Positions 3 through 50,013 of a stretch of 64,000 bases of DNA are shown piece after piece. How positions within the stretch are numbered: position 1 is the stretch's first letter; the number at the start of each line of letters is the position of its first letter. A model generated the notes under the pieces. It was not told the DNA's origin. It did not search any database and saw nothing but the letters and a program-made list of their open reading frames with translations. This DNA comes from Nannocystis bainbridge (lineage in GTDB: Bacteria > Myxococcota_A > Polyangia > Nannocystales > Nannocystaceae), in NCBI RefSeq assembly GCF_028368995.1, contig NZ_JAQNDL010000002.1, positions 1,632,001 through 1,696,000 on the forward strand, written 5' to 3'. A program made the position numbers and the translations under genes.

Positions 3-2243
3 ACTGGCCGCGCCGTCCACGAGGCCGCGCGGGCCCGCGACGCCAACCGCCTGGCCCAGGCCCTCGCCGGCGCGCGCGGCGATCCGACCACCGTGCTGGC
101 CCTGCTGCGCGAAGTCGAAGATCCGGCCGCCGCGTCCGGGTGGGTGCCCGCGGCCGTGTCGGCGCTGCTGCACCCGGTCAGCGTCGCCGTCCTGCGCGGC
201 CGCGGGGCCGCCCTGCAGGTCGCCGCGTTCAGCCCCGACGGCGCCCGGATCGCCGCCGCCGGCGAGGATCGGCGCGTGACCCTTTGGTCATGGCCCGAAG
301 ACCATGTCCTGAAGATCCACGAGCACCAGGGCCCCGTGCGCGCCGTCGCCTTCGCCCCCGGCGGCGCGCTCGTCAGCGGCGCCGAGGACGGCGCGGCCGT
401 GTGGCAGGATCCGCCGCTGCGCCTGCCCGCGTCGGCCGGCGCCGACCTGCGGGCCTTCGCCCTCGCGCCCGACGGCCGCACCCTCGTCACCGGCGGCGGC
501 GACGGCCGCGTGCGCGCTTGGGACCTGGGGGCCGCGCCGCCGCGCCCGCGCGAGCTGGCCCGCCACGAGGGACCTGTCCATGCGGTCCTGTTCGACAGGA
601 CAGGTCACCTCGTCGCATCCGCCGGCGCCGACGGGGCCGCGCGCATCGTCGACCTGCGCGCCGGTCCTCCGCGCTCCCTGGCCCACCCGAGCGGCGCCGT
701 GCGCAGCGCTGCGTTCAGCCCCGACGGCCGCAAGCTCGCCACCGGGGCCCAGGACGGGCTCGTGCGGGTGTGGGACACCCAGGGCTCGGGCGCGCCGGCG
801 CTGCTGCGCGGACACGCCGACGAGGTCGTCGCCCTGGCCTGGAGCCCCGACGGCGAGCACCTCGCGTCCGCCTCGCTCGACCGCAGCGCCCGCCTGTGGA
901 CCGCCGCGGGCGCCCTCCAGCGGACCCTGCGCGGCCACGACGGCCGCGTCTACGCCGTCGCCTGGAGCCCCGCCGGCGAGCGCCTCGTCACCGCCTCGCA
1001 GGACGGCACCGCCCGCGTCTGGCCGGTCGCCGGCGCACCTGTCCCCGGGGACATGCCGCTGGTCCTGCGCGGCCACGGCGAGGCGGTGGTCGCCGCCGGC
1101 TTCAGCCCCGCCGGCGACCACGTCGTCACCGCCTCGCGCGACGGCACCGCCCGCGTCTGGCGGGTCCGCGGCGGCGATCCGCTGGTCCGCGCCGTCGCGC
1201 TCGGCGGCCCCGTCGATCACCTGGTCTGGACCGCCGCCGGCCTGCACGCCGTCCGCACCGACGGCCGCGGCTTTCACCTCGCGTCGCGGGACATGCCCGA
1301 TAGGTCAGGCCCCAAAGGACATGTCGAAAAGGACATGTCATCCTCGCCAGACGAGTCCCGCGCGCGCCCCAGCCCGCTCGCCGGCGGCCCCGCCCCTTCC
1401 ATGTTCCTCGGGCCAGGTACGAACGGACATGTCCTCACCATCACCCGCGCCGGGGCCCTGCAGGGCTGGGACGACGCCCGCCGGCCGCTGCGGCCGCGCC
1501 CGCTCGACCCCGCGGCCGCGGCCGCGGCCGTCACCGCCGACCTCACCCTCGCCGCCCTCGCCGTGCCCGACGGCGCCCGTCTTTTCGACCTGTCCGATGG
1601 GACATCTCGCGCCCTGACCGGCCACCGCGGCAGCGTCACCGCCCTGGCCTTCTCGCCCGACGGCAGCAGGCTCGCCACCGGCGCCGCCGACCGCACGGCC
1701 CGGCTCTACGACGTGCGCGACCTCGCCGCCCCGCGCGAGCTCGGGCCGCACTCGGGCAGCGTCACGGTCCTCGCCTTCTCACCCGACGGCCAGCGGCTGG
1801 CCACGGGCTCGTGGGACCGCCGGGTCCGGATCTGGCCGCTCGACGGGTCCGCGCCGACGATCCTCGAGGAGCACAGCGGCCCGGTGCGCGCGCTCGCCTG
1901 GCGTCCCGACGGCGCCGCCCTCGCTACCGCCAGCGACGACGCGACGGTGCGGGTCTGGCCGCTCGACGGCCGCGACGAGCCGGTGGTCCTGACCGGCCAC
2001 CAGGGCCCCGTGCGCGCCCTCGCGTGGTCACCCGCCGGCCCGCACCTCGCCTCGGCCGGCGACGACGGCCAGCTCCGCCTGTGGTCGGCCGACTTCGCCC
2101 CCGCGACCCTGCAGGCCCGCCTGCGCGCCGCCTCGCCGGTGTGCCTGTCGGCGCGCCAGCGCGGCCAGCTGCTCGGCGAACCCCCAGCCCTCGCCGAGGC
2201 CAACGCGAGCGCGTGCCAGAGCGCGCGCGAACCGGCGCCGTGA
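3..2243 (+). CDS. WD40-repeat protein (5'-truncated by window edge; probably the C-terminal part of a large kinase/NTPase-WD40 protein)
   Basis: More than 12 GH...AFSPDG...SGxDxTxRxW repeats. Frame is open back to position 3 (TGRAVHEAARARDANRLA...DPTTVLALLRE). Confidence 0.9.
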   Translation, partial: TGRAVHEAARARDANRLAQALAGARGDPTTVLALLREVEDPAAASGWVPAAVSALLHPVSVAVLRGRGAALQVAAFSPDGARIAAAGEDRRVTLWSWPEDHVLKIHEHQGPVRAVAFAPGGALVSGAEDGAAVWQDPPLRLPASAGADLRAFALAPDGRTLVTGGGDGRVRAWDLGAAPPRPRELARHEGPVHAVLFDRTGHLVASAGADGAARIVDLRAGPPRSLAHPSGAVRSAAFSPDGRKLATGAQDGLVRVWDTQGSGAPALLRGHADEVVALAWSPDGEHLASASLDRSARLWTAAGALQRTLRGHDGRVYAVAWSPAGERLVTASQDGTARVWPVAGAPVPGDMPLVLRGHGEAVVAAGFSPAGDHVVTASRDGTARVWRVRGGDPLVRAVALGGPVDHLVWTAAGLHAVRTDGRGFHLASRDMPDRSGPKGHVEKDMSSSPDESRARPSPLAGGPAPSMFLGPGTNGHVLTITRAGALQGWDDARRPLRPRPLDPAAAAAAVTADLTLAALAVPDGARLFDLSDGTSRALTGHRGSVTALAFSPDGSRLATGAADRTARLYDVRDLAAPRELGPHSGSVTVLAFSPDGQRLATGSWDRRVRIWPLDGSAPTILEEHSGPVRALAWRPDGAALATASDDATVRVWPLDGRDEPVVLTGHQGPVRALAWSPAGPHLASAGDDGQLRLWSADFAPATLQARLRAASPVCLSARQRGQLLGEPPALAEANASACQSAREPAP

Positions 2244-3538: not shown

Positions 3539-3585
3539 CTTGCGCAACGGTCATGCGGCCGCGGCCGCGAAGCCCGGCGCGCGCG

Positions 3586-11472: not shown

Positions 11473-12035
11473 TGCTCGCCCCTCGATCGCGCCGCTTCCT
11501 CGCCTGTCTCTTGGGACTGGTGCTCTCCTCCGCCTGCGAGGGCAAGCCCGGCGCCGGCGCGACGGCCAGGACCGGCGGCGCCGCCCCGGTGCTCGCCCTC
11601 GGCGCGCCGGTCCCCGCCTTCGCCGGCACCACCTTGCGCGGCGAGCCGCTCAGCCTCGCCGACCTGCGCGGCCGCGTCGTCCTCCTCAACGTCTGGGCCA
11701 CCTGGTGCGACCCCTGCCGCGAGGAGCTGCCCGACCTGCAGGCGCTGCACGTCCGCCACGAGCCCGAGGGCCTCACCGTCGTCGGCGTCAGCACCGACGC
11801 CGCGCGCGACGCCCGGACCCTGCGCAACATGGTCGCCGGCTTCGGCCTCACCTACCCGATCGTCCACGACGAGCGCAACGTCGTCAGCGGCCCGTTCCAG
11901 GTCATCGGCTACCCGGCCAGCTACCTCGTCGACCGCGCCGGCAACCTCCGCTGGCGCCGCGACGGCCGGATCCCCACCGGCGACCCCGAGCTCGCCGCCG
12001 CCCTCGCAGCGGCGCTGGCCGAGCCTGCGCCGTAG
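11472..12035 (+). CDS. TlpA/ResA-family thiol-disulfide oxidoreductase lipoprotein
   Basis: VVLLNVWATWCDPCREELP (WCxxC). TGATG overlap with the sigma gene stop. Confidence 0.9.
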   Translation: MLAPRSRRFLACLLGLVLSSACEGKPGAGATARTGGAAPVLALGAPVPAFAGTTLRGEPLSLADLRGRVVLLNVWATWCDPCREELPDLQALHVRHEPEGLTVVGVSTDAARDARTLRNMVAGFGLTYPIVHDERNVVSGPFQVIGYPASYLVDRAGNLRWRRDGRIPTGDPELAAALAAALAEPAP

Positions 12036-12178
12036 AGCATGTCCGTGCGGACATGCCCTCGCGGACGTGTCGCTTCGGACATGTTCACAAGGCCGCCCGC
12101 GCGTCCAGGCCGACCGAGCCTGCGCCGCAGAGCATGTCCGTGAGGACATGCCCTCGCAGACATGTCGCTTCAGACATG
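12019..12178. repeat. Two ~65-bp direct repeats (95-bp period), each with four 14-bp-phased motif junctions
   Basis: CATG/CGTG at 12038, 12052, 12066, 12080 and 12133, 12147, 12161, 12175. Confidence 0.9.
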
Positions 12179-12226
12179 ACCGCGAGGCCAGCTCACTCGC
12201 GCAGCGGCGACCGCCGCGCGAGCGGC

Positions 12227-13207
12227 TCACACTCCGAGCAGCTCGCGCACGCTGCCGGCGACCGCCGCAGTGGGCAGGCACATGCGGGCCCCGGCGGCGC
12301 GCGCGGCCATGCGGATCTCGTCGGTCGGCGCGTCGTGGACCGCGATGATCTGCGGGTTGCTGGGCCCCGCGGCCAGCTTGGCGATCACGTCGGTGCTCTT
12401 GAGGTCGGGCACCGTCATGCTGAGGATCACGTAGCGCGGCGGCGCGGCCTGGGCGACCAGCAGCGCGTCGGCGCCGGTCTGGGCGGTCTTGATCTCGAGC
12501 GCCGGCGTCGCCCGCTCGAGCTCCTCCTTCACCTTGGCGCGGAAGTCGGCGTTCTGGGTCACCAGCAGCACCTTCGAGTTGTCGCGCGCGTCGTTCGACG
12601 GCTCGATGCGGGGCTCGTCGCGCAGGTGGAACGCCTCGACCACGCGGCGACGGACCTCGGCGACGTCGAGCGGCTTCTTGAGGCAGGCCGACGCGCCGGC
12701 CGCCAGGATCCGCTCCATGTTGGCCTCGGTGTAGTAGCCGGTGATGGCGATGATCTCGGTGTGCATCGTCGACGCGTCGCGCTTGAGGCGAGCGCACACC
12801 TCGAAGCCGTCGACGCCGGGCATCATCAGGTCGAGGAAGATGAGCTGCGGGCGGAACGTCGCCACCAGCCGGCCGGCGTCGAACGCGTCGCGGGCGACCT
12901 CGACGTCGAACTGATGCGACAGGTCCTTGAGGACATCCCGCACCAGGTCGAGCACGACCGGCTCGTCGTCGATCACGAGCAGGCGGCCGACCTCGTCGCC
13001 GGTCGGCACGGTGAACGGGATCCCGCGCTCTTGACAGACGCGCTCGAGATCCTCGCGCCGCACGCGGCGGTGGCCGCCCACGGTCTTGAACGCCGGGATG
13101 AGGCCGTCCTCGATCCAGCGGATCACGGTGGTCGGCGTGACGCAGCAGATCCGCGCGACGTCGTGGGTGGAGTAGGTGTCTTTGACTGGAGTGCGTCCGC
13201 GGCTCAT
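12227..13207 (-). CDS. Response regulator: excisionase/MerR-like HTH + receiver + second degenerate receiver
   Basis: YSTHDVARICCVTPTTVIRWI...TVGGHRRV, then LLVIDDE...LIFLDLMMPGVDG...ITG...KP. Confidence 0.88.
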   Translation of the reverse strand: MSRGRTPVKDTYSTHDVARICCVTPTTVIRWIEDGLIPAFKTVGGHRRVRREDLERVCQERGIPFTVPTGDEVGRLLVIDDEPVVLDLVRDVLKDLSHQFDVEVARDAFDAGRLVATFRPQLIFLDLMMPGVDGFEVCARLKRDASTMHTEIIAITGYYTEANMERILAAGASACLKKPLDVAEVRRRVVEAFHLRDEPRIEPSNDARDNSKVLLVTQNADFRAKVKEELERATPALEIKTAQTGADALLVAQAAPPRYVILSMTVPDLKSTDVIAKLAAGPSNPQIIAVHDAPTDEIRMAARAAGARMCLPTAAVAGSVRELLGV

Positions 13208-15969
13208 ACGCTGGGGGGCTGCCCTTCGGGGGCGTCCGGGAGGTGGATCGTGAAGGTCGTACCCAGCCCGGGCTGCGACCTCACGAGGATATCACCTCCG
13301 TGGTCCTTGATGATTCCGTAGGAGATCGCAAGCCCGAGGCCGGTGCCCTTGCCGATGTCCTTGGTGCTGAAGAACGGGTCGAAGATGCGGTCGAGGATCT
13401 CGGGGGGGATCCCGCAGCCCTCGTCGGCGATCTCGAGCACGACGCGGCCGTCTTCCCGGTCGAGGCGGATCCGGATCCGGCCGCCCCGCGGCATGGCGTC
13501 GACCGCGTTCGAGAACAGGTTGAGGAGCACCTGCTCGAGCTGATCGGCGTCGCCGACGAGCATCGCCTTCGGCAGCCCCGAGCGCAGGACCCGGACGTTG
13601 TGCATCCGCCACTGGTACTCGCCGATGCCGATCACGCGGTCGATGAGGCCGCTCAGGTCGACGGGCCGGCGCTTGCCGCCCTCGCGCTGGCGCGAGAACA
13701 GCAGCACGCCCTCGACGATCTTGCGGCAGCGCTCGCCGCTGGCCGCGATCTTCTCGACCTTCTCGCGCACGTTCGGGTCGAGCGGCTTCTCGAGCAGCAG
13801 CCGGCTGTAGCCGACCACGCCGCTGAGCGGGTTGTTGATCTCGTGGGCGATCCCCGCCGCCAGCAGGCCCACGGCCGCGAGCTTCTGCGTGCGCAGCACC
13901 TGGTCCTCGAGCGCTCGCCGCCGCCGCAGGTCGAGCGCGACGAGCACCGCGCCGGCCCCCGGATCGTCGGCCCCGCGCAGCAAGCGACCCTCGAGGTGCA
14001 GCGGGATCTCCTGCCCGCCCTCGGCCAGCACCGCGACCTCGGTGGCGATCGCGCCGGTCGACCGCAGGCTCGTCCACAACGTGTCCCATCGGGCAGGTTC
14101 GGCCAGGCGCGCCACCTCGACCCCGAACTTGCGCCCGCGGGCCGCCTCGGCCGACACGCCGAGCAGCTGCTGGCTGGCGCGGTTCCACGTCACGACCCGC
14201 CCGGCCGCGTCGATCGAATTGATGAGCACGCTGGTCTGGTCGAGCAGCAGCGCCTGATAGTCCGCCAGCGCCTCGGTCTCGATCATCAGGCGACCGCCCT
14301 CGAGCCCGAGCGCCAGCTGCGGGGCGAGCAGCGCCAGCAGCCGCAGCGGCGTCGCGTCGCGCGGCCCGGCGCCGGCCAGCACGAAGAACCCGGCCACCCG
14401 CGGATTGGCCCCCAGCGCCAGCCGGAGCGCGCTCCTCCGGCCCTCGAGCTCGCCGAACCACCGCCGGTGCGTGGGCTCCGTCGCGTCGATCTCGACCACC
14501 GCCGGGCCGCTGCCCCACGCCGCCGGCGGCTCGCTCTCGACGGGCAGCGTCGACACCCGCGGCGCGCAGCCGGTCCGCAGCGTCCACCGCTGCCAGCCCT
14601 CGCCGACGCGCGCGAGCACGACTCCGCGGGTGAACCCGAGCGAGTCCATGATCGCCCCGCAGGCCGCCGCCACGTTGTCGTGCGGCCGCGCCGTCGACAC
14701 CAGCAGGCGGTCGACCTGGGCCAGCAGCCGATCCTCGAAGTCCTGCTGCCGGCGCTCGCGGAGGTCGCGGAGCAGCGCCACCGTCGGCGCCCCCTCCTCG
14801 CGCCCGCCCGCCAGCGACAGCTCGACCGGCAGCGGCGCCCCGTCGAGCCGCCGCAGCTCGATCTCGCCATGCCAGTTGCCGACCCGCGCCTGCGTCAGCG
14901 CCTCGCTCAGCGCCCGCGCGGCCGCCGGCTCGGCCAGCTCGAGCAGGCTGCGCCCGCCCAGGTGCGGCCCGCTCCTGGCCTCCGAGTCCTGTCCCGAAGA
15001 CAAGGTCTTTCCGGACATGCTCTCTGCGCCAGGTCGCGTCCGCGCCAGCGCCCCGTCGGCCGCTGCCTGAGCCCCTGAAACCGCGCTCCGACCCGCTCCG
15101 GCGCCGGTTCGCGCCGCCTCGTCAACGGTTCGATCGGCGGCATGCGGCGCCGCGCTCGCCGCCCCGCCTGTCCACACCGCGTCGTCGCCGTCGCTCGCGC
15201 GTGACCGAACGGACATGTCCCTCGCGCCACCCGCCGCTCCGGCGCGTGACCGATCGGACATGCCCGTCGGGCCAGCCACGCCCCGGCCGGGCCGCGTATC
15301 CACGCCGCCGGCACGTGACCGATCGGGCATGTCCGTAGGGCCAGCCGAGCCGTCCGCCGTCTGCCCCGAAGACACTGTCCGTTGCGACATGTCCTCCACG
15401 CCAGGCCGGACGCGGCCGCGCACGTCGCCGGCGAACAGCACCCGCGCGGCCGGGTTGGCGTGCACGATCATGCCCGCGCCGTCGAGCAGCAGCAGCCCCT
15501 GGTCGAGCGCCTCGAGGCAGCGGGCCAGCGCGCGGCCGACGTCGGGCGTCTGCGACCGCTCGGGCGCGGTGAACGTCAGCAGCACGTTGTCGCTGGCCAG
15601 CTTGCTGGCCCGCACCGCGCACGGCCACGTCCGGCCGCGGCCCGGCACCAGCGTCAGCTCGAGCGAGAAGCTGTGGCCCGCCGGTCGCCCGCGCAGGCCG
15701 GTGAAGGCTCGCCCGAACGCGCTGCGCTCGCTGGCGCGCGCGATGTAGCCGAGGAACGGCTCGCCGCCGAGATCGTGGGCGGCGAGGCCCTCGGCCAGCC
15801 CCGGGTTGGCCGCCAGGATCAGACCCGCGGGCGTGAGCACGGCGGCCGGCATCGCCAGCGCCGCGACGATCTCGCTGTACGCGCCGAGCGCGCCGTCGGA
15901 GCCGAGGCGGACTGTGGCTTCGGCGTCGCCGAGGCGCGGCAGCGAGGAGGTTTTGGAGCCCTGGACCAC
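13204..15969 (-). CDS. PAS-domain sensor histidine kinase (start uncertain; GTG 15969 chosen)
   Basis: H-box AHEINNPL, N-box [30 protein letters not shown], three PAS-like segments. 4-bp overlap with the regulator. Confidence 0.88.
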
Positions 15970-16074
15970 GAGTGCGGCGGCATGCTTAGCAAAATTCCCC
16001 GCCTGGTGCCCGGGGTCGAGTTCGCGCAGCGCCGTCTCGCGCCCCCCGGCCACCCCTGCTAGTCTGCCGCGCCG

Positions 16075-16791
16075 ATGACGCTCACCGACCCTGGCCGCCT
16101 CGCGGGCGTGCGGCTCGCCGCCACCGTCGTCCTCCTGCGCGAGCGCGCCGCCGGCGATCCCCAGGTCTTCATGCTCCGCCGTAGCGCCCGGAGCCCGTTC
16201 ATGCCCGACACCCTGGTGTTCCCCGGCGGCGCGGTCGACCCCGACGACGGCCCCGAGGGCAGCGACGAGGCCTTCGACGCCGCCGCGCGGCGCGAGTGCC
16301 GTGAGGAGGCCGGCGTCGCCCTCGAGGCCCGCGACCTCCACTGGTTCGACACCTGGCTCACCCCCGCCGCCGAGCCGCGCCGCTACTTCGCCCGCTTCTA
16401 TCTCGCGCGCCTGACCGAGGGCGAGTTCGAGGACGCCGCCGCCGACGGCCACGAGACCCACGAGGGCCGCTGGGCCACCCCGGCGGAGCTCCTGGCCGCC
16501 TGGCAGCGCGAAGAGGTCGACCTCCCGCCGCCGACGCTGTGCACCCTCATGCGCCTGGCCGACGAGCGCCGCGCCGGCCTCGTCGGCCTCCCCGCCGCCC
16601 TCGTGCACGAGCCGATCCTCCCCAAGGGCCTCCTCCAGCCCGACGCCGACGGCGAGGCGCGCCTCGTCGTCGTGCTCCCCCACGACCCGGCCTACCCCGA
16701 GCTGCCCGGCGACGGCGTGCCCGCCCCCGCCCGCGTCGCCGACCTGCCCCACCGCCTCGTCCGCGCCGGGAGGACCTGGCGCCTGTGCTGA
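16075..16791 (+). CDS. NUDIX hydrolase
   Basis: AATVVLLR...VFPGGAVD...AARRECREEAG...WLTP...RRYFARFY. Confidence 0.88.
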   Translation: MTLTDPGRLAGVRLAATVVLLRERAAGDPQVFMLRRSARSPFMPDTLVFPGGAVDPDDGPEGSDEAFDAAARRECREEAGVALEARDLHWFDTWLTPAAEPRRYFARFYLARLTEGEFEDAAADGHETHEGRWATPAELLAAWQREEVDLPPPTLCTLMRLADERRAGLVGLPAALVHEPILPKGLLQPDADGEARLVVVLPHDPAYPELPGDGVPAPARVADLPHRLVRAGRTWRLC

Positions 16792-19307: not shown

Positions 19308-19862
19308 ATGCCTGTCGACCCGGGCCCGAGTGCACCTTCATCCTCTGCCGCCATGTCCGTCGCCGCCGTGCTTTCCGGAGGCTCCGGTCCCTGGCCCAGC
19401 CACCCGCCCGCGCTCGCCGACGACGTCAACTCGATCGACGCCATCGTCCGCGCCATGTACGCCTCGGTCTCGTTCACCGAGGGGCGGGGCCCCGACGCCG
19501 AGCGTCTCGCCAGCCTGTGCGTCCCGCACGGCCGCCTGATCAAGGTCCACGCCAACAACATCGACGACATGAGCGTCCCCGAGTTCGTCGAGCGGGTGCA
19601 GACCCGGATCAGCGAGCAGGGCCTGCGCGGCTTCTCCGAGCGCGAGCTGTTCCGCCGCACCGAGGTGTTCGCCGGGATCGCCCACGTCTTCACCACCTAC
19701 GAGAGCCGCACCGACGACGGCGGCGCCGACCACCTGCTCTACCGCGGCATCAACAGCATCCAGCTGCGCCACGACGGCCGGCGCTGGTGGATCCTCACGA
19801 TCCTCTGGGCCGACGAGCGCGACGACTCCCCGATCCCCGCGGCGTATCTTCCTCGCACATGA
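19308..19862 (+). CDS. NTF2-like (SnoaL/DUF4440-type) protein
   Basis: SIDAIVRAMYASVS...FSERELFRRTEVFAGIAHVFTTYE...RGINSIQL...RWWILTILW. GGAGG just before the ATG. Confidence 0.8.
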   Translation: MPVDPGPSAPSSSAAMSVAAVLSGGSGPWPSHPPALADDVNSIDAIVRAMYASVSFTEGRGPDAERLASLCVPHGRLIKVHANNIDDMSVPEFVERVQTRISEQGLRGFSERELFRRTEVFAGIAHVFTTYESRTDDGGADHLLYRGINSIQLRHDGRRWWILTILWADERDDSPIPAAYLPRT

Positions 19863-20788
19863 GCGCGGTCCGCGGTCGCTACGCTCCCAGCCCGACCGGC
19901 CCGCTGCACCTCGGCAACGCGCGCACCGCCCTGCTCGCCTGGCTCGACGCCCGCGCTCGCGGCGGCGCCTTTGTCATGCGCATCGAGGACGTCGACTTCA
20001 CGCGCGCCCGGCCCGAGTTCGAGGCCCAGCTCCTGCTCGACCTGCACTGGCTCGGCCTCGACTGGGACGAGGGCCCCGACGTCGGCGGACCGTCCGGCCC
20101 CTACCGTCAGAGCGAGCGCGGCGATCGCTACGCCGCCGCCCTCGCGCGCCTCGAAGTCTACCCGTGCACCTGCACCCGTCGCGAGCTGCGCGCCTTGCCG
20201 GTCACCAGCATGTCCGGAGAGCCAGTGTACCCGGGGACATGTCGCAAAGGACAGTCGAACCCCGGCCGTCACGCCGCCGTGCGCTGGCGCGTCCCTGGCG
20301 GCAGCGTCGACTTCGTCGATCGCCTGTGCGGCGAGCACCGGCAGGACATCGACCGCGACGTCGGCGACTTCGTGCTGCAGCGCGGCGACGGGGCCTGGGC
20401 CTACCAGCTCGCCGTCGTCGTCGACGACGCCGACATGGGCGTCACCGACATCGTCCGCGGCGCCGATCTGCTCGACAGCACCCCGCGGCAGCTCCACCTC
20501 CTGCGCGCGCTGCACCCTGACCTGCCCGCCCCGCGCTTCGCCCACGTCCCGTTGATCCTCGGCGCCGGCGGGGCCAAGCTCAGCAAGCGCGATGGGGCGC
20601 CCGACCTCGGGGCCCTGCGCGAGGCGGGCGCATCGCCGGCGCGCGTCGTGGCGGCGCTCGCCCGCAGCGTGGGCCTCGTGCCCCCGGAGGTCCGCGAGAT
20701 CCGGCCCCGCGAGCTCTTGACCACCGTTCAGGCCGACGATCCGCTCGCGCGCATCACCTCGCAGCCCCTCGACCTCGCCGGCCTGTGA
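19859..20788 (+). CDS. gluQ: tRNA glutamyl-Q(34) synthetase GluQRS
   Basis: [53 protein letters not shown]. No anticodon-binding domain. Confidence 0.92.
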
Positions 20789-28368: not shown

Positions 28369-29444
28369 GCGCCGGTCTCCGCGATCCAGCCGCCGCCGAG
28401 CACTCGGTCACCGGCGTAGATCACCGCGGCTTGCCCCGGCGCCGCCGCCTGGACCGGCGTTTCGAAATGGATCGTCGCCCGCTCGCCCGCCAGCTCGACG
28501 CGCGCCGGCGCCGGCCGCCCGCGGTGACGGATCTGGACCTCCGCGCGGACCGTCGCGTGCTCGCCCAGCGGCGCCAGCCGGCGGAAGTCCGCCAGCGTCA
28601 GCGCGTGCGTCTCGAGGTCCGCCGCGTCGCCCACCACCACCTGGCGCTGCGCCGGCAGCACCCGCAGCACGTAGCGCGGCGACGTGCCCGGGATCCGCAG
28701 CCCGCGGCGCTGGCCGATCGTCACGCGGTGGATCCCGCCGTGCGCCCCGAGCACGCGGCCCTCGGCGTCGACCACCTCGCCGGGCGCCAGCTCCTCGGTC
28801 GCCAGCCCCAGCGTCGCCGCCCGCGCCTCCACCAACTCACCGTGATCGCGGCCGCCGACGAAGCACAGCTCCTGGCTGTCGGGCGTGTCGGCGCTCGGCA
28901 GCCCGAGCGCGCGGGCCTTGGCTCGCACCTGGTCTTTGAGCCATGTCCCGAGCGGAAACTGCACCCCCGCCAGCAGCGCCGGCGGCACCGCGAACAGGAA
29001 GTACGTCTGGTCCTTCGTCGCATCGGCCGCGCGCAGCAGCGCCCCGTCTTCCAGGCGCGCGTAGTGGCCGGTCGCCAGCGCCTCGGCACCGAGCGCGCGG
29101 GCGCGGGCCACCAGCGGCCCGAACTTCACGTGCTCGTTGCAGCGGACGCACGGGTTCGGCGTGCGGCCGCGGGCGTACTCGCGGGCGAAGTCGTCGATCA
29201 CCTGGGCCGAGAAGCGCTCCTGCTCGTCGACCGTGTAGTGCGGGATCCCAAGCAGCGCGCACACGTCTCGCGCCTGATCGATCTCCGCCGGCGAGCAGCA
29301 CGACCCGCCGCGGCCCTGGCGTTCGTGCCCGCTGGCGTCGTAGAGCCGCATCGTCAGGCCCACCACTTCGTGGCCCGCCTCGACCAGCAGCGCCGCCGCC
29401 ACCGACGAGTCGACCCCGCCGGACATCGCGCACACGATCCTCAT
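28365..29444 (-). CDS. mnmA: tRNA 2-thiouridine(34) synthase
   Basis: AMSGGVDSSV, TPNPCVRCN, ATGHYAR, KDQTYFL, DSQELCF, TIGQRRGL, PGQAAV. Confidence 0.96.
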   Translation of the reverse strand: MRIVCAMSGGVDSSVAAALLVEAGHEVVGLTMRLYDASGHERQGRGGSCCSPAEIDQARDVCALLGIPHYTVDEQERFSAQVIDDFAREYARGRTPNPCVRCNEHVKFGPLVARARALGAEALATGHYARLEDGALLRAADATKDQTYFLFAVPPALLAGVQFPLGTWLKDQVRAKARALGLPSADTPDSQELCFVGGRDHGELVEARAATLGLATEELAPGEVVDAEGRVLGAHGGIHRVTIGQRRGLRIPGTSPRYVLRVLPAQRQVVVGDAADLETHALTLADFRRLAPLGEHATVRAEVQIRHRGRPAPARVELAGERATIHFETPVQAAAPGQAAVIYAGDRVLGGGWIAETGA

Positions 29445-30634
29445 GACGGCGTCACCTCGCGCCAGTCGCCGCCGCCCTCCGCCCCGCGCACGCGCGCGAT
29501 CGCCTCGGGCAACGCGGCCAGCAGCGCTTCGACATCCTCTTCGGTGTTGCCGGCGCCGAGCGAGATCCGCAGCGCCGAGCGAGCCGCGGCCGGCGTCAGC
29601 CCCAGCGCCAGCAGCACCGGCGACGGCTCGGGCGTGCCCGAGCTGCAGGCCGCCCCGTACGACACCGCGATCCCTGCCAGGTCGAGGTTCATCGCCAGCA
29701 GCTGCCCGTCGCAGCCGGCGAACCCGGCGCTCACGGTGTTGCCGACCCGGCGCTCGCGATCGCCGTGGACTGTCACATCGGACATGTCCGAAAGGCCAGC
29801 CCGCAAGCGTTCGGCCAGTCGGGTCACGTGGGCGTGGCGCGTCGGCAGCTCGGCCGCGGCCAGCTGCGCCGCGACGCCGAACCCTGTGATGCTGGCGACC
29901 GGCTCGGTCCCCGCCCGGCGCCCGCGCTCTTGCTGGCCGCCGAGCAGCAGCGGATCGATCGCCAGCCGGCGGCGATGGACCAGCGCGCCGACCCCCTTCG
30001 GGCCGTAGATTTTGTGGCTGCTGACGCTGAGCAGGTCGAGATCCCAGCCATGAAAGTCGAGGGGCAGCTTGCCGAACGCCTGCACCGCGTCGCAGTGGAC
30101 CAGCGCCCCGGGCGCGAATTCGCGCACCACGCGGACCAGCGCCGGGATGTCGTAGGCATTGCCGAGCACGTGATTCGCGGCAGCGAGCGAGACAACTCCC
30201 ACGTCCGGGTTCTCCCGGAGGGCGGCGCTCAGCGCGTCGGGCTCGATGCGGCCATGGGCGTCGACCGCGACCAGCGCCAGCGGGTGTCCCTCACGCTGCA
30301 GCCGGCCCGCCGCCGCCAGCACCGCCGGGTGCTCGAGCGGCGAAGTGAGCAGGCCAAAAGGCCGCCCTGCGGCCCGCAGCGCCCTCGCAGCGCCGATCAG
30401 CGCCAGGTTGTCGGCCTCGGTCCCGCCCGACGTGAAAGTCACCTCGAGCGCCTCGGCCCCGAGCGCCCGGGCGACCGCGCGGCGCGCCTGTTCGACGGCC
30501 GCCCGGGCCCGCTGCCCCGTGCTGTGCACGCTGGCCGGGTTCCCCTGAAGGAGGGGGTCGGTCAGCGCGGCGATAACAGCGTCCCGGACCCGGGGATCGA
30601 GGGGGGTCGTCGCGTTGTGGTCGAGGTAGCGCAC
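29441..30634 (-). CDS. iscS: Cysteine desulfurase (IscS/NifS family)
   Basis: YLDHNATT, FTSGGTEADN, HCDAVQ, SSHKIYGPKG, RAGT, GAACSS. Directly upstream of mnmA. Confidence 0.92.
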   Translation of the reverse strand: MRYLDHNATTPLDPRVRDAVIAALTDPLLQGNPASVHSTGQRARAAVEQARRAVARALGAEALEVTFTSGGTEADNLALIGAARALRAAGRPFGLLTSPLEHPAVLAAAGRLQREGHPLALVAVDAHGRIEPDALSAALRENPDVGVVSLAAANHVLGNAYDIPALVRVVREFAPGALVHCDAVQAFGKLPLDFHGWDLDLLSVSSHKIYGPKGVGALVHRRRLAIDPLLLGGQQERGRRAGTEPVASITGFGVAAQLAAAELPTRHAHVTRLAERLRAGLSDMSDVTVHGDRERRVGNTVSAGFAGCDGQLLAMNLDLAGIAVSYGAACSSGTPEPSPVLLALGLTPAAARSALRISLGAGNTEEDVEALLAALPEAIARVRGAEGGGDWREVTPS

Positions 30635-30698
30635 CCAGGGCCGGCTATAGCACGAGGTCCGGCGCCGGGAGCCCCGGTTTAGCCGGCTTGTTGACGGG

Positions 30699-32726
30699 AT
30701 GGGCTCCGGCGTTGAATCATCACAGCGCGTGAGTCTCCTCGGGACCATGATGGTGAGAGCGGGCCTGCTCTCCGACGAGCAGTTAGCCGCGGTACAGGCC
30801 ACAAGCGCCGAGCGCAAGCTCTCCTTCGTCGAAGCTCTGCTTTCGCACAGCTTCGCCGATGAAGACAGCGTCGTCGGTTTCCTTCACAGCAAGCTGATGA
30901 TCCCCAAGGTGGGCGCCAGCATCCTCGACGGCGTCGATCGATCGGCGCTCGATCGGGTCCCCGGTGAATTGGCTGCGCGCCACGCCGTGCTCCCGATCTC
31001 GAGCGACGAGACTGGCAACCTCACCCTGGCGATGGTCGACCCGACCGACATGAAAGCGGTCGACGCCATCTCGGCGCACACGGGCGCGTATCTGGTTCGC
31101 GCGGTCGCGCCGCTGCGAGTCATCCGCTCCTCGATCACGCACCACTACGGGATCCCGGCGCCGACCTTGCCCTCGCTGCAGGCGACCAAGCCGGCCACCG
31201 CCGCGACCCCGGCCGCGGTCATCCCCGCCGGCGCCTCCGCACCTGGCTCGAGCACCAGCCGCGCCCCCTCGGCCGCCGTCAGCTCGGCGCCGACGGTGAC
31301 GCCCCCGACCATTGGCACCCCGCCGAACGGCGCCCTGACCGTGCCTTCGCCGCCGGTCGTCGAGCCCGTCGCCGCGGGCGCCTCTCGCCCCTCCGCCCCC
31401 AGCGGCGCCGCGATCCGTCCGGCCGCCGTGCTCCAGCCCTCGGCCGTGCTCATGGCCGGCGCCCCGCGTCCGGCCGCCGTGTTGCCGGCCGCCGCCTTCG
31501 CGCCCTCGCCGTACGGCATCCCCGCCCACGCCGCCGCGCCCGTGGTCGCATCGAGCGCCACCGCGACCGTAGTCGCACCTGTCCCTTCGGCCAGCCCGCC
31601 CGGCAGCGGCAGCCTCGCCGCGGCGCTCACCGCCACCCCGCCGGTCGCCACCTCCCCCGCGAGCAACGGCGTCTCGTCGGTCGGCGCGACCAACCTCTCC
31701 GCCCCCAACCTCGCCGCCCCCAACCTCGCCACCCCGCCGATCGCCGTACCTGTCTCTTCGGCCAGCTCGGCCCCGGGCAACGTCACCCAGCCGTTCGCCT
31801 CCTCGAGCATCACCGCGGCGATGCCCGCCGCACCTGTCTCTGCGGCCAGCTCGACCACGGGCAGCGTCGCCCAGCCGTCCACCGCCGCGAGCGTCCCCGC
31901 CGCGGTCGCCATCGACGCCGACACCGTACCTGTCCCTGCGGCCAGCCCCGTCAGCGAGCCCGAGGCGCCCGTGCCGACGATCGCTGGCGCCATGGCGACC
32001 CTGCGCCCGGCCGAAGAGATCGACACCTCGCGCGGTCGCACCGAGCCCGGCACCGAGAGCGCCGCCGAGACCCTCTCCGGCGCCCCGCGGCCCAGCGACG
32101 ACCTCGACATCCCGCTCGACGACCTCGAGAGCAACGACCGACCCGGCACCTCCGGGCCCGGCGAGGCGACCTTCGACGCCGCCAAGACCCAGACCTGGAT
32201 CCCGCCGAGCTTCACCGCCGCCAACGAGATCATCCCGCTGTCGCCGGAGGCGTTCCACCGCCTGCTGCCGCGCTTCGCCACCGTCAAGTCGCGCGACGAG
32301 GTCACCGACCTGCTGCTCGATTTCCTCGCCGAGGGCTTCTCGCGGGTCATCATGTTCGTCCACGTCAAGGGCGAGATCCGCGGCCGCGACGCCCGCGGCG
32401 AAGACCTGCTGGTCGAGGCCGTGCGCCAGATCCGGATCCCCGCCGGCGGCCCCTCGGTGTTCTCCGGCGTCATCGAGCGCCGCCTCCCCTACTTCGGCGC
32501 GATGCGGACCGACACCCCGATCGACGCCGCCTTCTTCTCGGCCCTCGGCGGCGTCGAGGGCGTCATCCTGGTCCTGCCCGTCCTCCTGCGCGAGAAGGTC
32601 CCGCTGATCGTGTTCGCCTCGGGCTCGAGCAACCCCGTCGACCCGCGCAGCCTGCACGAGCTGACCCACGAGGTCGCCGCCGCGCTCGAGCGCATCATCG
32701 TGATCGAGAAGGCCCGCGGGAAGTAG
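30699..32726 (+). CDS. MshEN/GspE-N-terminal domain protein with long Ala/Pro/Ser/Thr linker and GAF-like C-terminus
   Basis: LGTMMVRAGLLSDEQL...VPGELAARHAVLPI...LTLAMVDPTD. No ATPase motifs. Confidence 0.75.
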   Translation: MGSGVESSQRVSLLGTMMVRAGLLSDEQLAAVQATSAERKLSFVEALLSHSFADEDSVVGFLHSKLMIPKVGASILDGVDRSALDRVPGELAARHAVLPISSDETGNLTLAMVDPTDMKAVDAISAHTGAYLVRAVAPLRVIRSSITHHYGIPAPTLPSLQATKPATAATPAAVIPAGASAPGSSTSRAPSAAVSSAPTVTPPTIGTPPNGALTVPSPPVVEPVAAGASRPSAPSGAAIRPAAVLQPSAVLMAGAPRPAAVLPAAAFAPSPYGIPAHAAAPVVASSATATVVAPVPSASPPGSGSLAAALTATPPVATSPASNGVSSVGATNLSAPNLAAPNLATPPIAVPVSSASSAPGNVTQPFASSSITAAMPAAPVSAASSTTGSVAQPSTAASVPAAVAIDADTVPVPAASPVSEPEAPVPTIAGAMATLRPAEEIDTSRGRTEPGTESAAETLSGAPRPSDDLDIPLDDLESNDRPGTSGPGEATFDAAKTQTWIPPSFTAANEIIPLSPEAFHRLLPRFATVKSRDEVTDLLLDFLAEGFSRVIMFVHVKGEIRGRDARGEDLLVEAVRQIRIPAGGPSVFSGVIERRLPYFGAMRTDTPIDAAFFSALGGVEGVILVLPVLLREKVPLIVFASGSSNPVDPRSLHELTHEVAAALERIIVIEKARGK

Positions 32727-32742
32727 CCGCGCCGGCCCCGGC

Positions 32743-32862
32743 GCGCATGTCGAAGCGGGCATGTCCAAACGGACATGCCCGTTTCTCTATGTCCGTTCGC
32801 GCATGTCCTCACGGACATGCGCGAAGCGACATGTCCGAAGGCGCAGACTAGTGTGCACGTGA
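32743..32862. repeat. Longest intergenic 14-bp-phased array
   Basis: CATG/TATG at 32746, 32760, 32774, 32788, 32802, 32816, 32830, with a decayed CGTG at 32858. Confidence 0.92.
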
Positions 32863-32873
32863 ACTCTGTCGCT

Positions 32874-33170
32874 GCCGAAGCAGCACCAAGCAGCGCCGCA
32901 CATCGGTAACGCAGCGTCGGCTCGCACCAGAAGCGCTTCGATGCCGAAGCAGCGCCAAGCGTCACCGCAGTCGCAGCGTCGGCTCGCACCAGAAGCGTTT
33001 CGACGCCGAAGCAGCGCCGCACACAGGCGCGCAGCGTCGGCCCGCACCAGAAGCGCTTCGATGCCGAAGCAGCGCCGAGCAGCGCCGCACACAGACGCGC
33101 AGCATCGGCTCGCACCGGGGTGCGTCGATGCCGAAGCAGCGCCAAGCGTCACCGCAGTCGGAGCGACGCC
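32874..33170. repeat. Five-unit imperfect tandem repeat (58-69 bp units)
   Basis: GCCGAAGCAGC at 32874, 32943, 33005, 33063, 33130. Shared block CGCAGCGTCGGCTCGCACCAGAAGCGCTTCGA. Confidence 0.88.
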
Positions 33171-33189
33171 TCCCGAGCGCCCCACCCGC

Positions 33190-34113: not shown

Positions 34114-34171
34114 CGATCCGAACAGGCGCGTCGGCTCGACGGTGTCGGTTCCGGAGGGACGTGCGGACGAA

Positions 34172-34780
34172 TCAGTCACTGGCCTTGCTCCCGGGCGCCT
34201 GGGGGCGCAAAAGCTCGAAGCGATCCGTCGTGCGAGTGTACGCGATCCCGCCGAGGCGGCCGATCGACTGCAATTGCCCCGGGTCGATCGGCAGCAGGCG
34301 GCCTCGCGCATCGCGCCGCAGCAGCTCGCTGGCGACGGAGAAATGCACCACCTCGGCCACGACCAGCGTGGCTGACGGTTTTCCGGGGGCGCCGTCCCCC
34401 AGCGGAAGCGCGTGCACGAGCTTGCACTCGAGACAGGCCAGCGCTCCCACGACGCGAGGAGGCGCAACGACCGCAGCCGCCTCGGCCGCGATCGCGCACG
34501 CCTCCCACTCCGAAATCTCGGGCGAAAACGGCGCCGACGTGGCGTTCATCGCCGTGGCGAGGCCATCGGACACGTGGTTGATGACCATCTCGCGGGTCGC
34601 CAGCACGTTCGCCAGCGTGTCCTTCATGCGCCCGTCGGGCCACCACGACACGCTGAACACCACCATCGGCGGGTGCGAGCAGACGGCCTGGTAGTAGCTG
34701 AACGGCGCCAGGTTGCGGCGGCCGTCCTCGCTGACGCTCGACACCCACGCGATCGGACGCGGCGCGACCAGGTCGGTCAT
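34172..34780 (-). CDS. Flavin reductase (DIM6/NTAB) family protein
   Basis: VAPRPIAWVSS...NLAPFSYY...KDTLANV...IGRLGGIAY. Confidence 0.9.
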   Translation of the reverse strand: MTDLVAPRPIAWVSSVSEDGRRNLAPFSYYQAVCSHPPMVVFSVSWWPDGRMKDTLANVLATREMVINHVSDGLATAMNATSAPFSPEISEWEACAIAAEAAAVVAPPRVVGALACLECKLVHALPLGDGAPGKPSATLVVAEVVHFSVASELLRRDARGRLLPIDPGQLQSIGRLGGIAYTRTTDRFELLRPQAPGSKASD

Positions 34781-42318: not shown

Positions 42319-44241
42319 TTGCCGCGCCTCCTCGTCGCCCTCGCCGCGTTCACCGTCACGGCCTGCTCCGCGCCTGCTCCGGCGACGCCGGTCGTCACCC
42401 CGCCGGCCACCGTCGTGCACCTCCCGACCGCTCCCCGTGCCGGCCGCGATCCGCACTCGTTCGCCCGCCCCGACGAGGTCCGCGTCGACGCCGTCGACCT
42501 CGACCTCACCGTCGATTTCGCGGCCCACGTCCTCCGCGGCAGCGCCACCCTCGCGCTCACCCGCACCGTCGCCGACGCCCCGCTGGTGCTCGACACCCGC
42601 GACCTGACCATCGAGCGCGTCGAGGCGCACCTGCCCGATCGGACAGACTGGGTGGCGACGACTCACGCGCTCGGCGGCACCCACCCCATCCTCGGCCAGG
42701 CCCTCACGATCGAGCTCCCGCCCGGTGCCGACCGCGTGCGCGTCCACTACCGCACCAGCCCCGCCAGCATCGGCCTGCAGTGGCTCGCCGCCGAGCAGAC
42801 CAGCGACCGCGCCGGCGAATTCCTCTACACCCAGTCGCAGGCGATCCACGCCCGCTCGTGGGTCCCGTGCCAGGACAGCCCCGGGATCCGCGTCACCGTC
42901 GCCGCCCGGATCGCCGCGCCCGCGCCGTACCGGGCCGTCATGGCCGCCGAAGAGCTGTCTCACGAGACAGGTCCCGAAGGACATGTCCTGAGGACCTTCA
43001 AGCTCGACCAGCCGATCCCGGCCTACCTGCTCGCGCTCGCCGTCGGCCGGCTCGACTCGGCCCCGCTCGGCCCGCGCACCGCCGTGTGGGCCGAGCCCGG
43101 CGTGCTCTCGCGCGCCCGCGCCGAGTTCGCCGACCTCGAGGCCATGCTGACCGCCGCCGAGGCCGCCGTCGGCCCGTACCGCTGGGGCCGCTACGAGGTG
43201 CTCGTGCTGCCGGCCGCCTTCCCGTTCGGCGGCATGGAGAACCCGCGCGTCACCTTCGTCACCCCGACGATCCTCGCCGGCGATCGCTCGCTCGTGTCGC
43301 TGATCGCCCACGAGCTGGCCCACGCCTGGTCCGGGAACCTGGTCACCAACGCCACCTGGCGCGATTTCTGGCTCAACGAGGGCTTCACGGTCTACATCGA
43401 GCGCCGGATCCTCGAGGCCATCTACGGCCGCGAGCGCGCCGAGGTCGAGGCCGTGCTCGGCCGCGAGCACCTCGAGATCGAGCTCGCCGACATGTCCGAA
43501 CGGCCAGGCGACCAGATCCTCCACCTCGACCTCGCCGGCCGCGACCCTGACGACGCCGTCACCGACGTCGCCTACGAGAAGGGCGCCCTGTTCCTCCGCC
43601 GGCTCGAGCAGGCCTACGGCCGCGACGCCTTCGACCCGTTCGTCCGCGCCTGGTTCGATCGCCACGCATTCACCGGCCAGACCACCGAGGCCTTCCGCGC
43701 CTTCCTCGACGCCGAGCTCAAGGCTCCGCTGCTCGCCGGACAGACCGCCCCCGACATCGATCTCTGGCTCGAGGCGCCCGGGCTCCCCGAAGACGCGCCC
43801 CGGCCCCAGGCGGCCAGCCTCACCGTCGCCGCCGACGCTGCGCGAGCCTTCGCGGCTGGCGGCAAGCCCGACACTCGCGCCTTCTCGCCCCTGCAGTGGA
43901 TCCATTTCCTCCGCGCCGTGCCGCTGGTCGAGGGTCCGCGCCCGGCCGCCGCGCTCCTCGCCGAACTCGACGCCGCCTACCACTTCACGACCACCGGCAA
44001 CGCCGAGCTGTTGTCCGAGTGGCTCGTCCTCGCCGCCCGTCACGGCTATCGCCCGGCCGACGCGCGGATCCGCGAGTTCCTCGTCGGCGTCGGCCGCCGC
44101 AAGTACGTCCTCCCGATCTACGACGCGCTGCTCGCCACACCCGAGGGCGCCGCGCTCGCGCGCGAGATCTTCGCGGTCGCCCGTCCGGGCTACCACGCGA
44201 TCACCCGCGGCAGCCTCGACGCCCTGCTCGGCGCGCCCTGA
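42319..44241 (+). CDS. M1-family aminopeptidase (leukotriene A4 hydrolase-like) lipoprotein
   Basis: DPHSF, PCQDSP, FGGMENP, HELAH...WLNEG, YEKG, VGRRKY. Confidence 0.95.
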   Translation: MPRLLVALAAFTVTACSAPAPATPVVTPPATVVHLPTAPRAGRDPHSFARPDEVRVDAVDLDLTVDFAAHVLRGSATLALTRTVADAPLVLDTRDLTIERVEAHLPDRTDWVATTHALGGTHPILGQALTIELPPGADRVRVHYRTSPASIGLQWLAAEQTSDRAGEFLYTQSQAIHARSWVPCQDSPGIRVTVAARIAAPAPYRAVMAAEELSHETGPEGHVLRTFKLDQPIPAYLLALAVGRLDSAPLGPRTAVWAEPGVLSRARAEFADLEAMLTAAEAAVGPYRWGRYEVLVLPAAFPFGGMENPRVTFVTPTILAGDRSLVSLIAHELAHAWSGNLVTNATWRDFWLNEGFTVYIERRILEAIYGRERAEVEAVLGREHLEIELADMSERPGDQILHLDLAGRDPDDAVTDVAYEKGALFLRRLEQAYGRDAFDPFVRAWFDRHAFTGQTTEAFRAFLDAELKAPLLAGQTAPDIDLWLEAPGLPEDAPRPQAASLTVAADAARAFAAGGKPDTRAFSPLQWIHFLRAVPLVEGPRPAAALLAELDAAYHFTTTGNAELLSEWLVLAARHGYRPADARIREFLVGVGRRKYVLPIYDALLATPEGAALAREIFAVARPGYHAITRGSLDALLGAP

Positions 44242-49089: not shown

Positions 49090-50013
49090 ATGTCGCCGCG
49101 CTCCCTTCGTGCTCTCGCTCTCCTCGTCGCCCTCGCCGCAGCGTGTGGCGGCGAACCGGTCAAGCTGGCGCCCCGGGCCGAAAAACTCGAAGTCCGACCG
49201 CCGCCGCCGGCCCCGACCACCGTGCACCTCGCCATCGACGGCGCGAGCGGACAGCTGGGCTTCGCCATGGAGGCCCCCATCGAGAAGATCCGCGGCAAGG
49301 TCCCGGCATCGGCCCTGAGCGGCGAGGTGTGGCTCGACCCGACCGACCTCGCCAAATCACGCGGCCTCGTGCGCGTCGATCTCCGTCAACTCGAGCTGTA
49401 CCAGCGCACCGTCCCCGAGGGCGGCAAGGAGTTCGGCGAGGAGATCAAGAGCGACACGCAGAACGAGCACGCCCGGCACTGGCTCGAGATTTCGCCCGAC
49501 ACGCCCGCCGACGAGCTGGCCAAGAACAGCGTCGTCGAGTTTGCGCTGGCCCGGATCAGCGACGCCTCCGCGACCGACCTGTCCAAAGTGACAGGTTCCG
49601 AACGCACCGTCACCTTCACGGCCAGCGGCGAATTCCTGCTGCATCAGCGCAAGGCCGAGAAGTCGGTCAAGCTCGAGGCCGTGTTCCGCTACGACGGCGA
49701 CGCGCTGCGCGAGGTCCACGTCAAGAGCGTCGAGCCGCTGACGATCGGCCTCGACGAGTACGATGTCCGCCCGCGCACCGGCTTCAGCCAGCTCGCCGCC
49801 AAGACCCTCGAGCAGCTCGCGCCCAAGGTCGCCAAGGAGGCCCAGGTCTCGCTCGAGTTCGTCGCCAAACCCGACGGCAAGACCGCGAGCCCCGCCGGCC
49901 CCTCGACCCCCGGTCCCGCCGATGCACCCCCGTCCGGCGCCGCGGCCCCGACCGCGCCCGCAACTGCCTCCTCCCCCGGTGCCGCGCCCACCCCCGCGCC
50001 GGCGAACCAGTGA
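49090..50013 (+). CDS. YceI-like lipoprotein
   Basis: Lipobox AAAC, APIEKIRG...DPTDL...GEFLLHQ...IGLDEYDV beta-barrel pattern. Confidence 0.6.
   Translation: MSPRSLRALALLVALAAACGGEPVKLAPRAEKLEVRPPPPAPTTVHLAIDGASGQLGFAMEAPIEKIRGKVPASALSGEVWLDPTDLAKSRGLVRVDLRQLELYQRTVPEGGKEFGEEIKSDTQNEHARHWLEISPDTPADELAKNSVVEFALARISDASATDLSKVTGSERTVTFTASGEFLLHQRKAEKSVKLEAVFRYDGDALREVHVKSVEPLTIGLDEYDVRPRTGFSQLAAKTLEQLAPKVAKEAQVSLEFVAKPDGKTASPAGPSTPGPADAPPSGAAAPTAPATASSPGAAPTPAPANQ

Follow-up and report, generated by a model that had tools for sequence, protein, structure and literature searches.

The 64,000-nucleotide stretch of DNA analysed here (the window; positions 1632001-1696000 of contig C3 of genome G000) and the genome from which it is taken carry a 10-base palindrome, GGACATGTCC, which is clade-specific, hyper-abundant and, by its counts, restricted to one genus. 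Its abundance, its phasing at 14 bp, its location, its excess over a null of shuffled synonymous codons, the indel-free origin of its copies at the checked sites and the conservation of A/T-ending third codon positions within it are established by observation. An original prediction, centred on the gluQ gene of this window, had stated that the motif is written into conserved housekeeping codons with the help of rare A/T-ending codons, by point substitution without insertion, and that selection or biased gene conversion thus acts on the DNA itself. We favour, with slightly better than even confidence, a joint reading in which GGACATGTCC is a genus-specific palindromic word that is read by some factor and upheld by a force at the level of DNA, with its home at the 3' ends of genes and with additional copies in coding sequence.

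The source genome (11.05 Mb, 71.5% G+C, five contigs, completeness 90.5%) is that of a Nannocystaceae-type myxobacterium, judging from the closest named relatives of its gluQ protein, Enhygromyxa salina (64%) and Plesiocystis pacifica (59%). It contains 956 copies of GGACATGTCC, 101-fold more than the 9.5 expected from base composition and equivalent to about one exact copy per 11.5 kb; the listing of enriched 10-mers in this genome is headed by the word and its overlapping variants. Since codon-driven words such as TCGAGGTCGA also reach 60- to 75-fold, the expectation from base composition alone is unsafe, and permutation of synonymous codons was adopted as a null. Within the same genus, six large genomes hold 640-956 copies and five others 43-206. 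Two sister genera have 25-28 copies, the remaining 18 of the genomes searched have no more than 16, and a reversed-pattern control yields 0-7 copies. The possibility that outgroups use a different word "dialect" was rejected: the outgroup contig G009:C1 carries the same word more weakly (30 exact copies, with AGGACATGTC at 51-fold), and 339 kb of G013 shows none. Literature searches on the word, on Nannocystis repeats and on repetitive extragenic palindromes (REPs) of Sorangium cellulosum returned no bacterial description of GGACATGTCC, supplementary files being outside their scope; the papers listed as containing the string concern p53 or unrelated topics.

The word is organised in phased groups. 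The flanks of exact copies repeat the same word at 14 and 28 bp, and the 8198 units with at most two mismatches in the genome show spacing peaks at 14, 28, 42, 56, 70 and 84 bp, represented by 1893, 932, 751, 360, 128 and 52 pairs, respectively. The 4-bp spacers between phased units are essentially free in sequence; 25 of 451 triples have identical adjacent spacers, suggestive of tandem duplication. Genes were called with a caller of our own based on codon scores and on the G+C fraction of third codon positions (GC3); the calls are uncurated (8153 genes, 83.7% coding), and some open reading frames (ORFs) are over-extended, e.g. 13204-16752. According to these calls, 624 of the 956 exact copies (about 65%) are intergenic, 311 (33%) lie in coding sequences (CDS), and 21 run across a gene boundary.

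The excess of coding copies is real and exceeds chance. When synonymous codons are permuted within each gene (20 permutations for exact copies, eight for copies with one mismatch), the frame GGA CAT GTC C is found 109 times as compared with 1.8 under the null, the frame xGG ACA TGT CC, which is that of gluQ, 22 times versus 0.5, and the frame xxG GAC ATG TCC 180 times versus 36.0. The corresponding figures for one-mismatch copies are 255 versus 44.5, 143 versus 6.4 and 588 versus 420. Altogether, the 311 exact coding copies lie 5- to 60-fold above the synonymous-shuffle null, depending on the frame, in line with what the original prediction had expected of such a comparison. The expected enrichment of A/T-ending codons is likewise present, A or T occupying 262 of 1113 third positions in exact coding units (23.5%) and 6.0% of those in all CDS. 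A phased neighbour with at most three mismatches accompanies 57% of the 311 exact coding units, versus 0.8% of random coding positions. The proteome bears the same imprint: the tripeptide DMS occurs at 2.72 times expectation and its reverse, SMD, at 0.58 times, and EDMS and PEGHV reach 7.5 and 12.7 times expectation.

Conservation between species points to the word as the conserved entity. In 370 kb aligned with two sister species, G001 and G010, a difference is seen at 8 of 50 and 7 of 51 A/T third positions within units, respectively, as compared with 59.6% and 59.9% of those outside (Fisher p 5e-10 and 2e-11), which makes the former about four times as stable as the latter. For exact units, the differences amount to 2 of 18 (G001) and 0 of 18 (G010), and across five species in the window to 17 of 81 inside units versus 52.6% outside. 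Codon positions 1 and 2 evolve faster inside units than elsewhere (about 0.10 vs 0.06), and therefore this conservation belongs to the word and not to the protein. Together with the synonymous-shuffle excess, the stability of the A/T third positions supports the earlier claim that a force acts on the DNA itself. Coding units are still recognisable as units in 35 of 56 cases in G001 and 32 of 56 in G010. Intergenic arrays, in contrast, turn over quickly: among 151 intergenic units, 35 and 19 are retained, and 76 and 88 are unalignable.

At the gluQ site, the codons GGG ACA TGT CGC AAA GGA CAG are present as claimed at 20234-20254, and their A/T-ending members are as rare as had been stated: ACA accounts for 2.2% of Thr codons, TGT for 9.8% of Cys, AAA for 5.1% of Lys and GGA for 2.7% of Gly in a genome with a GC3 of 94.2%. 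These codons were said to spell a 14-bp unit (20238/20252). The first unit they spell, GGACATGTCG, is one mismatch from GGACATGTCC; the in-register second one, GGACAGTCGA, is poor, with five mismatches. All six close genomes read GGG ACA TGT CGC AA(A/C) GGA CAG without an indel, with GGACATGTCG identical in six of six and GGA CAG of the second unit kept; neighbouring synonymous sites vary, and in distant gluQ orthologues the corresponding codons of the zinc-knuckle YPGTCR are ACC or ACG and GGG or GGC. The AAA codon represents a non-synonymous change from Asn to Lys. The codon of the zinc-ligand Cys (20240-20242) is the rare TGT in 12 of 18 orthologues, motif-free genomes included; judged by these orthologues, TGT is therefore older than the motif and may have a cause of its own.

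The further sites named in mnmA, iscS, a WD40 gene, the M1 peptidase and the gene at 49222-50013 all exist, as exact or mismatched units (Table 1). Pfam searches (threshold E <= 0.001) confirm mnmA, a class-V aminotransferase (iscS-like), the M1 peptidase and the WD40 protein; the gene at 49222-50013 reaches no Pfam family at this threshold, and the name "YceI-like" given to it is not supported. Codon alignments were made at six units in five of the six genes cited (gluQ, mnmA, the iscS-like gene, the M1 peptidase with two sites, and 49222-50013), and at every site the close relatives and the nearest outgroups have no gap opposite the unit itself. In mnmA, where no indel is found, ACA and AAA are shared by G000 and four of five close relatives (G003 has AAG), as opposed to ACC and AAG in G008; in the sister species G003, Asp-Gln-Val has independently become Glu-His-Val, yielding GAACATGTCC. 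The iscS-like unit shows no indel relative to the four closer outgroups, which read Ala-Leu-(Ala/Pro) or similar at this place, and the most distant one, G014, has two extra codons within the unit; among close genomes, four have AAC (Asn), and G000 and G010 have GAC. Both here and at M1 position 43488, Ala-Leu-Ala was turned into Asp-Met-Ser by three or four substitutions. At M1 position 42979, no gap falls on the unit in the distant genomes G009 and G008 of the same genus; they carry GGCCAGGTCC, and GGC CAG GTC there corresponds to GGA CAT GTC in the close clade (Gln to His). Immediately past this unit, one codon is missing from G009, and the length of this place also differs in the family-level outgroups G014 and G013. 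Opposite the unit pair in gene 49222-50013, G009 has an equally long, unrelated sequence that shows no motif.

The WD40 site was compared among close genomes. Its unit at 570 aligns without gaps in five of five of them; as an instance of conserved codons it does not hold, since the third base of GGA varies among the six genomes, being A in three. Further along the same ORF, at 1283-1358, a stretch with three units (1289, 1317 and 1331) cannot be aligned in four of the five sister genomes, and in G010 a longer segment takes its place (about 281 vs 75 nt); it represents either a linker of hypervariable sequence or what was once a gene boundary.

The changes at these sites had been described as synonymous. 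Some are, at rare A/T-ending codons, but many changes are non-synonymous, namely at the iscS-like gene, at both M1 sites and at the gluQ AAA codon. Origin by substitution without insertion likewise stands for the six aligned sites, but not genome-wide. Synteny with G009, G013 and G011 around the window extends over a few genes only, so single-protein searches and one outgroup contig were used: for an unbiased sample, all unit-carrying G000 genes were compared with one 1.07-Mb contig of the distant same-genus G009, giving 99 genes and 122 unit sites in homologous protein segments confirmed by tblastn. Of the exact units, 18 of 34 have an alignment gap no more than six residues away, as have 50 of all 122 units; among the 1929 control positions, the share is 15.9% (binomial p 7e-7 and 3e-11 for exact and for all units, respectively). 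The other 16 of the 34 exact units have no gap nearby. Nor are the affected codons conserved ones in general, as local protein identity at units is 0.39-0.47 versus 0.65 at controls and several multi-unit insertions occur. One class of alignments consists of such insertions, 8-30 residues long (e.g. ...TEGQVPEDMSEGTCAK..., with inserted peptides such as GPEGHVPEDMSEGT), where the outgroup sometimes has a repeat of its own; a second class consists of same-length patches with several residues rewritten. On these alignments, the coding copies appear to split roughly in half between an indel or insertion class and an in-place class; origin in place is real, but much of it alters amino acids. In the G009:C1 homologue of the G000 gene g6920, a 32-residue repeat (SAGTGELSEGTGGLSAGTGG...) occupies the place where G000 has a unit, and the same protein spots seem prone to repeat gain in both lineages.

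The intergenic units show a clear preference for gene ends. Their density per kb is 7.57 in convergent, 2.20 in tandem and 0.74 in divergent intergenic regions, 56% of convergent regions contain a unit, and density peaks 25-50 nt past stop codons; in tandem regions, 1554 units lie closer to the upstream stop and 584 closer to the downstream start. Adjacent units tend to carry compensatory variants, GGGCATGTCC being followed by GGACATGCCC with an odds ratio of 2.43 (p 3e-8); the odds ratio is 1.67 (p 4e-4) for the inner pair and about 1.1 for co-variation at the same position in direct register. Five intergenic arrays folded as RNA give z values from -3.3 to -10, the strongest fold (region 32750-32845) comprising two hairpins at -61.8 kcal/mol with z -10.0. 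Spacers show no strand bias relative to the upstream gene (purine fraction 0.488), and across the window no Rfam family reaches its gathering score. Two further models were rejected: an extended palindrome spanning the array, as spacers behave no better than shuffled ones and the flanks of exact units do not differ either (5.45 vs 5.49), and an even spacing of units along the chromosome, which the coefficient of variation (CV) of 1.33 leaves unsupported.

Several arrays of the window deserve separate mention. The two copies at 12035-12181 have nearly identical flanks and resemble a recent local duplication of a whole array. The array at 44245-44268 is adjoined by a separate canonical T-tailed terminator (44286-44313, minus strand; a 12-bp stem followed by TTTTTTT), and because of this neighbour it does not simply substitute for an ordinary terminator. 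At 57910-57961, four direct units of the non-palindromic variant GGACCTGTCC are found. The minus-strand ORF 13204-16752 spans arrays at 15211-15394 that fail to align in four or five sister genomes; it is probably over-extended, or represents two genes with an intergenic array between them.

Table 1. Units and arrays of the palindromic word in the window, with the gluQ gene
Feature	Position	Strand	Remarks
WD40-gene units GGACCTGTCC (570) and GGACAGGTCA (598)	570..607	+	Pfam WD40
Intergenic two-unit array	3507..3530		Fold of 3495-3545: 17-bp stem, -33.4 kcal/mol, z -7.7
Two direct copies of about 95 bp, a four-unit array in each	12035..12181		Fold of 12030-12095: z -3.7
gluQ gene	19859-20788	+	Pfam tRNA-synt_1c, E 8e-51; GluQ/Glu-tRNA-synthetase-type catalytic domain
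gluQ unit GGACATGTCG	20235..20244	+	1 mismatch from GGACATGTCC; (GG)G ACA TGT CG(C), zinc-knuckle YPGTCR
Weak in-register second gluQ unit GGACAGTCGA	20249..20258	+	GGA CAG TCG A; 14 bp on, 5 mismatches
mnmA weak unit (AGCCATGTCC on the plus strand)	28939..28948	-	2 mismatches; within conserved FPLGTW(L/H)KDQV
Exact unit in class-V aminotransferase (iscS-like)	29780..29789	-	Frame (TC)G GAC ATG TCC
Intergenic array of five units (<=2 mismatches)	32757..32836		Six-slot 14-bp grid, +28 slot degenerate
M1-peptidase pair AGACAGGTCC-cgaa-GGACATGTCC (42965; exact unit 42979)	42965..42988	+	Glu-Thr-Gly-Pro-Glu-Gly-His-Val
M1-peptidase unit CGACATGTCC	43488..43497	+	Asp-Met-Ser; G009 has CGCCCTCGCC (Ala-Leu-Ala), no indel, 4 substitutions
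Two-unit array directly past the M1-peptidase stop codon	44245..44268		Fold z -3.6
Pair CGACCTGTCC-aaag-TGACAGGTTC in gene 49222-50013	49575..49598	+	No indel vs G009

In the joint reading, GGACATGTCC would be recognised by some sequence-specific factor and maintained by a force on the DNA itself, either selection or a drive in transmission or repair. Its main home would be just past stop codons, above all between convergent genes, where 14-bp-phased units would pair with their neighbours into hairpins, which probably form 3'-end or termination structures that either strand can use. Intergenic arrays of this kind would expand, contract and turn over fast. The same force would create and preserve the copies inside genes, about half of which would stem from point substitutions in place, both synonymous (to rare A/T-ending codons) and amino-acid-changing, and about half from indels or recombination patches, both kinds favouring protein segments that tolerate change. 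We infer that the word has a specific protein as its reader and that transcripts are the target of the intergenic hairpins.

A number of results weigh against this reading. Canonical intrinsic terminators end in a T-tail, which does not follow the arrays, and a terminator scan of 30001-50000 returned two sites versus 3.7 expected, neither of which is a motif array. Complementarity of spacers beyond the units is absent (flanking spacers match at 1.05 positions vs 1.07 when shuffled, n=451). Centre variants (CCTG, CAGG) co-occur directly and not inverted (CT-CT 14 vs 2.4 and AG-AG 13 vs 1.7 expected); this direct pairing suggests an oriented subfamily or tandem duplication, and tandem duplication or oriented binding fits it better than hairpins do. 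At coding sites, RNA folds are non-significant in four of five cases (z -0.35 to -2.0). Those intergenic units that can be aligned are barely more conserved than their surroundings, with 15.0% versus 15.9% difference in G001 and 15.6% versus 15.6% in G010. Arrays are clustered in their spacing along the chromosome, and the gaps between them are not filled by coding copies (median distance to the nearest non-coding unit 2370 vs 2515 nt, p 0.07). Metatranscriptome contigs give only small shares (at most 0.10 of words), and transcript ends are not shown by such contigs.

Under one alternative, the word would be a strict DNA uptake sequence (DUS), for which competent cells favour DNA bearing the motif, recombination spreads the favoured alleles as a molecular drive, and paired copies serve as terminators. 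As a full account this is possible, if rather unlikely. It would explain why a 10-mer has roughly 1000 exact copies and why 33% of these lie in ORFs, a share close to the 34.5% given for Neisseria meningitidis in the available part of the source (PMC2817400), where DUS coding copies are described at poorly conserved residues, inflating the tripeptides they specify, much as specified tripeptides are enriched about 2- to 3-fold here. For DUS, the available text of a second source (PMC2397512) reports paired copies at gene ends and new copies that often face gaps or unrelated sequence in relatives, and many copies of GGACATGTCC do the same. ComEC (143 bits) and DprA (116 bits) are present in G000, which says little, as they also match in 10 and 11, respectively, of 14 control genomes; uptake of DNA by this genus would be a proposal by analogy. 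Moreover, known uptake sequences are non-palindromic and come without phased arrays, which here comprise up to seven units, the density of exact copies is about ten times lower than for DUS, and their spacing is clustered.

A selfish mobile repeat resembling REPs or miniature inverted-repeat transposable elements, with coding copies arising as in-frame linker insertions comparable to the Rickettsia palindromic elements (RPEs), is unlikely. REPs, too, typically favour convergent intergenic regions and the 3' ends of genes; gaps at 18 of 34 exact coding units, the clear multi-unit insertions of 8-30 residues, the 76 and 88 of 151 intergenic units that defy alignment and the identical adjacent spacers would all follow from mobility. 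The other 16 of the 34 exact coding units have no nearby gap, however, the cited sites arose by substitution in segments of constant length, and the conservation of rare A/T third positions in units is not explained by insertion alone. A RAYT (Y1 transposase) was also sought: PF01797 has no match in G000 (90.5% complete), and the control matched in 6 of 14 genomes. A selfish element that spreads by insertion alone does not account for the data, because no RAYT was found, copies arise in place and rare codons are conserved, in agreement with the earlier statement that a mobile element would not suffice.

A mutational artefact that needs no reader, be it biased mismatch repair of the very-short-patch type or template switching that perfects quasi-palindromes, is very improbable. 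The unit is indeed a perfect palindrome, and several changes per unit are common (four at M1 43488). Repair bias does not fit, since Vsr (PF03852) was not found in G000 and occurs in only one of six motif-rich genomes, and since changes run in all directions, including from G/C to A/T against a strong GC bias; template switching would not converge genome-wide on one sequence, and units persist between species, an argument also made for the cyanobacterial word HIP1 in the part of the source available (PMC5861425). That the coding hits merely reflect codon usage or wrong gene calls has a negligible probability: the frame xxG GAC ATG TCC does expect 36 of its 180 exact and 420 of its 588 one-mismatch hits, and some ORFs are over-extended (13204-16752), but the rare-codon frames lie 22- to 60-fold over the null, 198 of the 311 exact copies are flanked by sequence with GC3 above 0.88 and 122 sites sit in the tblastn-confirmed segments, by which a chance origin of the rare-codon frames is refuted. 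What remains is the view of a word read by some factor and upheld by selection or by transmission drive.

A force that holds rare A/T-ending codons in place, and even alters amino acids in genes for tRNA modification, Fe-S metabolism and peptidase activity, implies that something reads GGACATGTCC. The identity of this reader could reveal how gene ends are marked in large GC-rich myxobacterial genomes, could show whether these organisms exchange DNA by means of a self-recognition signal, and could provide a handle for genetic manipulation in a group that is hard to work with. In a speculative extension, which we think doubtful, GGACATGTCC would be the first self-recognition word of the uptake-sequence kind in myxobacteria: a palindromic, 14-bp-phased word with a genus-specific receptor for DNA or hairpins, spread by biased transmission and recombination, serving as bidirectional 3' hairpins and rewriting the proteome on its way. 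In practical terms, the word calls for caution with gene callers and with codon optimisation in this genus.

Among known systems, the neisserial DUS and the cyanobacterial HIP1 are the closest analogues. With DUS and the uptake signal sequences (USS) of Pasteurellaceae, the word shares a length of about 10 bp, a hundreds- to thousands-fold over-representation, specificity for a genus or family and a share of one third to two thirds in ORFs; with DUS, as far as the two sources cited above extend, it also shares gene-end pairs, poorly conserved residues, inflated tripeptides and new copies facing gaps. It differs from both in being palindromic, in its strict 14-bp phase, and in its sparser and uneven distribution. 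HIP1 (GCGATCGC) is a short palindrome, over-represented by 15- to 300-fold and conserved inside ORFs as well as between them, for which the available portion of the source infers selection rather than biased repair, the function being unknown (PMC5861425). The 101-fold over-representation of the palindrome described here, its conserved third positions and the retention of 35 and 32 of 56 coding units are similar to this; in contrast, HIP1 is mostly scattered in genes, at up to more than one per gene, whereas two thirds of the copies here are intergenic, at 3' ends and in phased arrays able to form hairpins.

REPs and REPINs are abundant extragenic palindromes near gene 3' ends that favour convergent gene pairs, form hairpins and occur in arrays. 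The arrays described here are alike in these respects, but no RAYT was found in G000, the unit measures only 10 bp, and confinement to extragenic DNA does not apply, as a third of the copies (311 of 956) are in CDS, some of them arisen in place. RPEs measure about 100-150 bp and enter genes by insertion only; like them, the word is a palindromic repeat translated within real proteins, but about half of its coding copies appear to have come without an indel. From canonical intrinsic terminators, the arrays are set apart by the missing T-run, though their hairpins are strong. Beside DUS/USS and HIP1, GGACATGTCC thus offers a third, structurally different case, palindromic, phased and placed at 3' ends, for the question of why one word saturates a genome.

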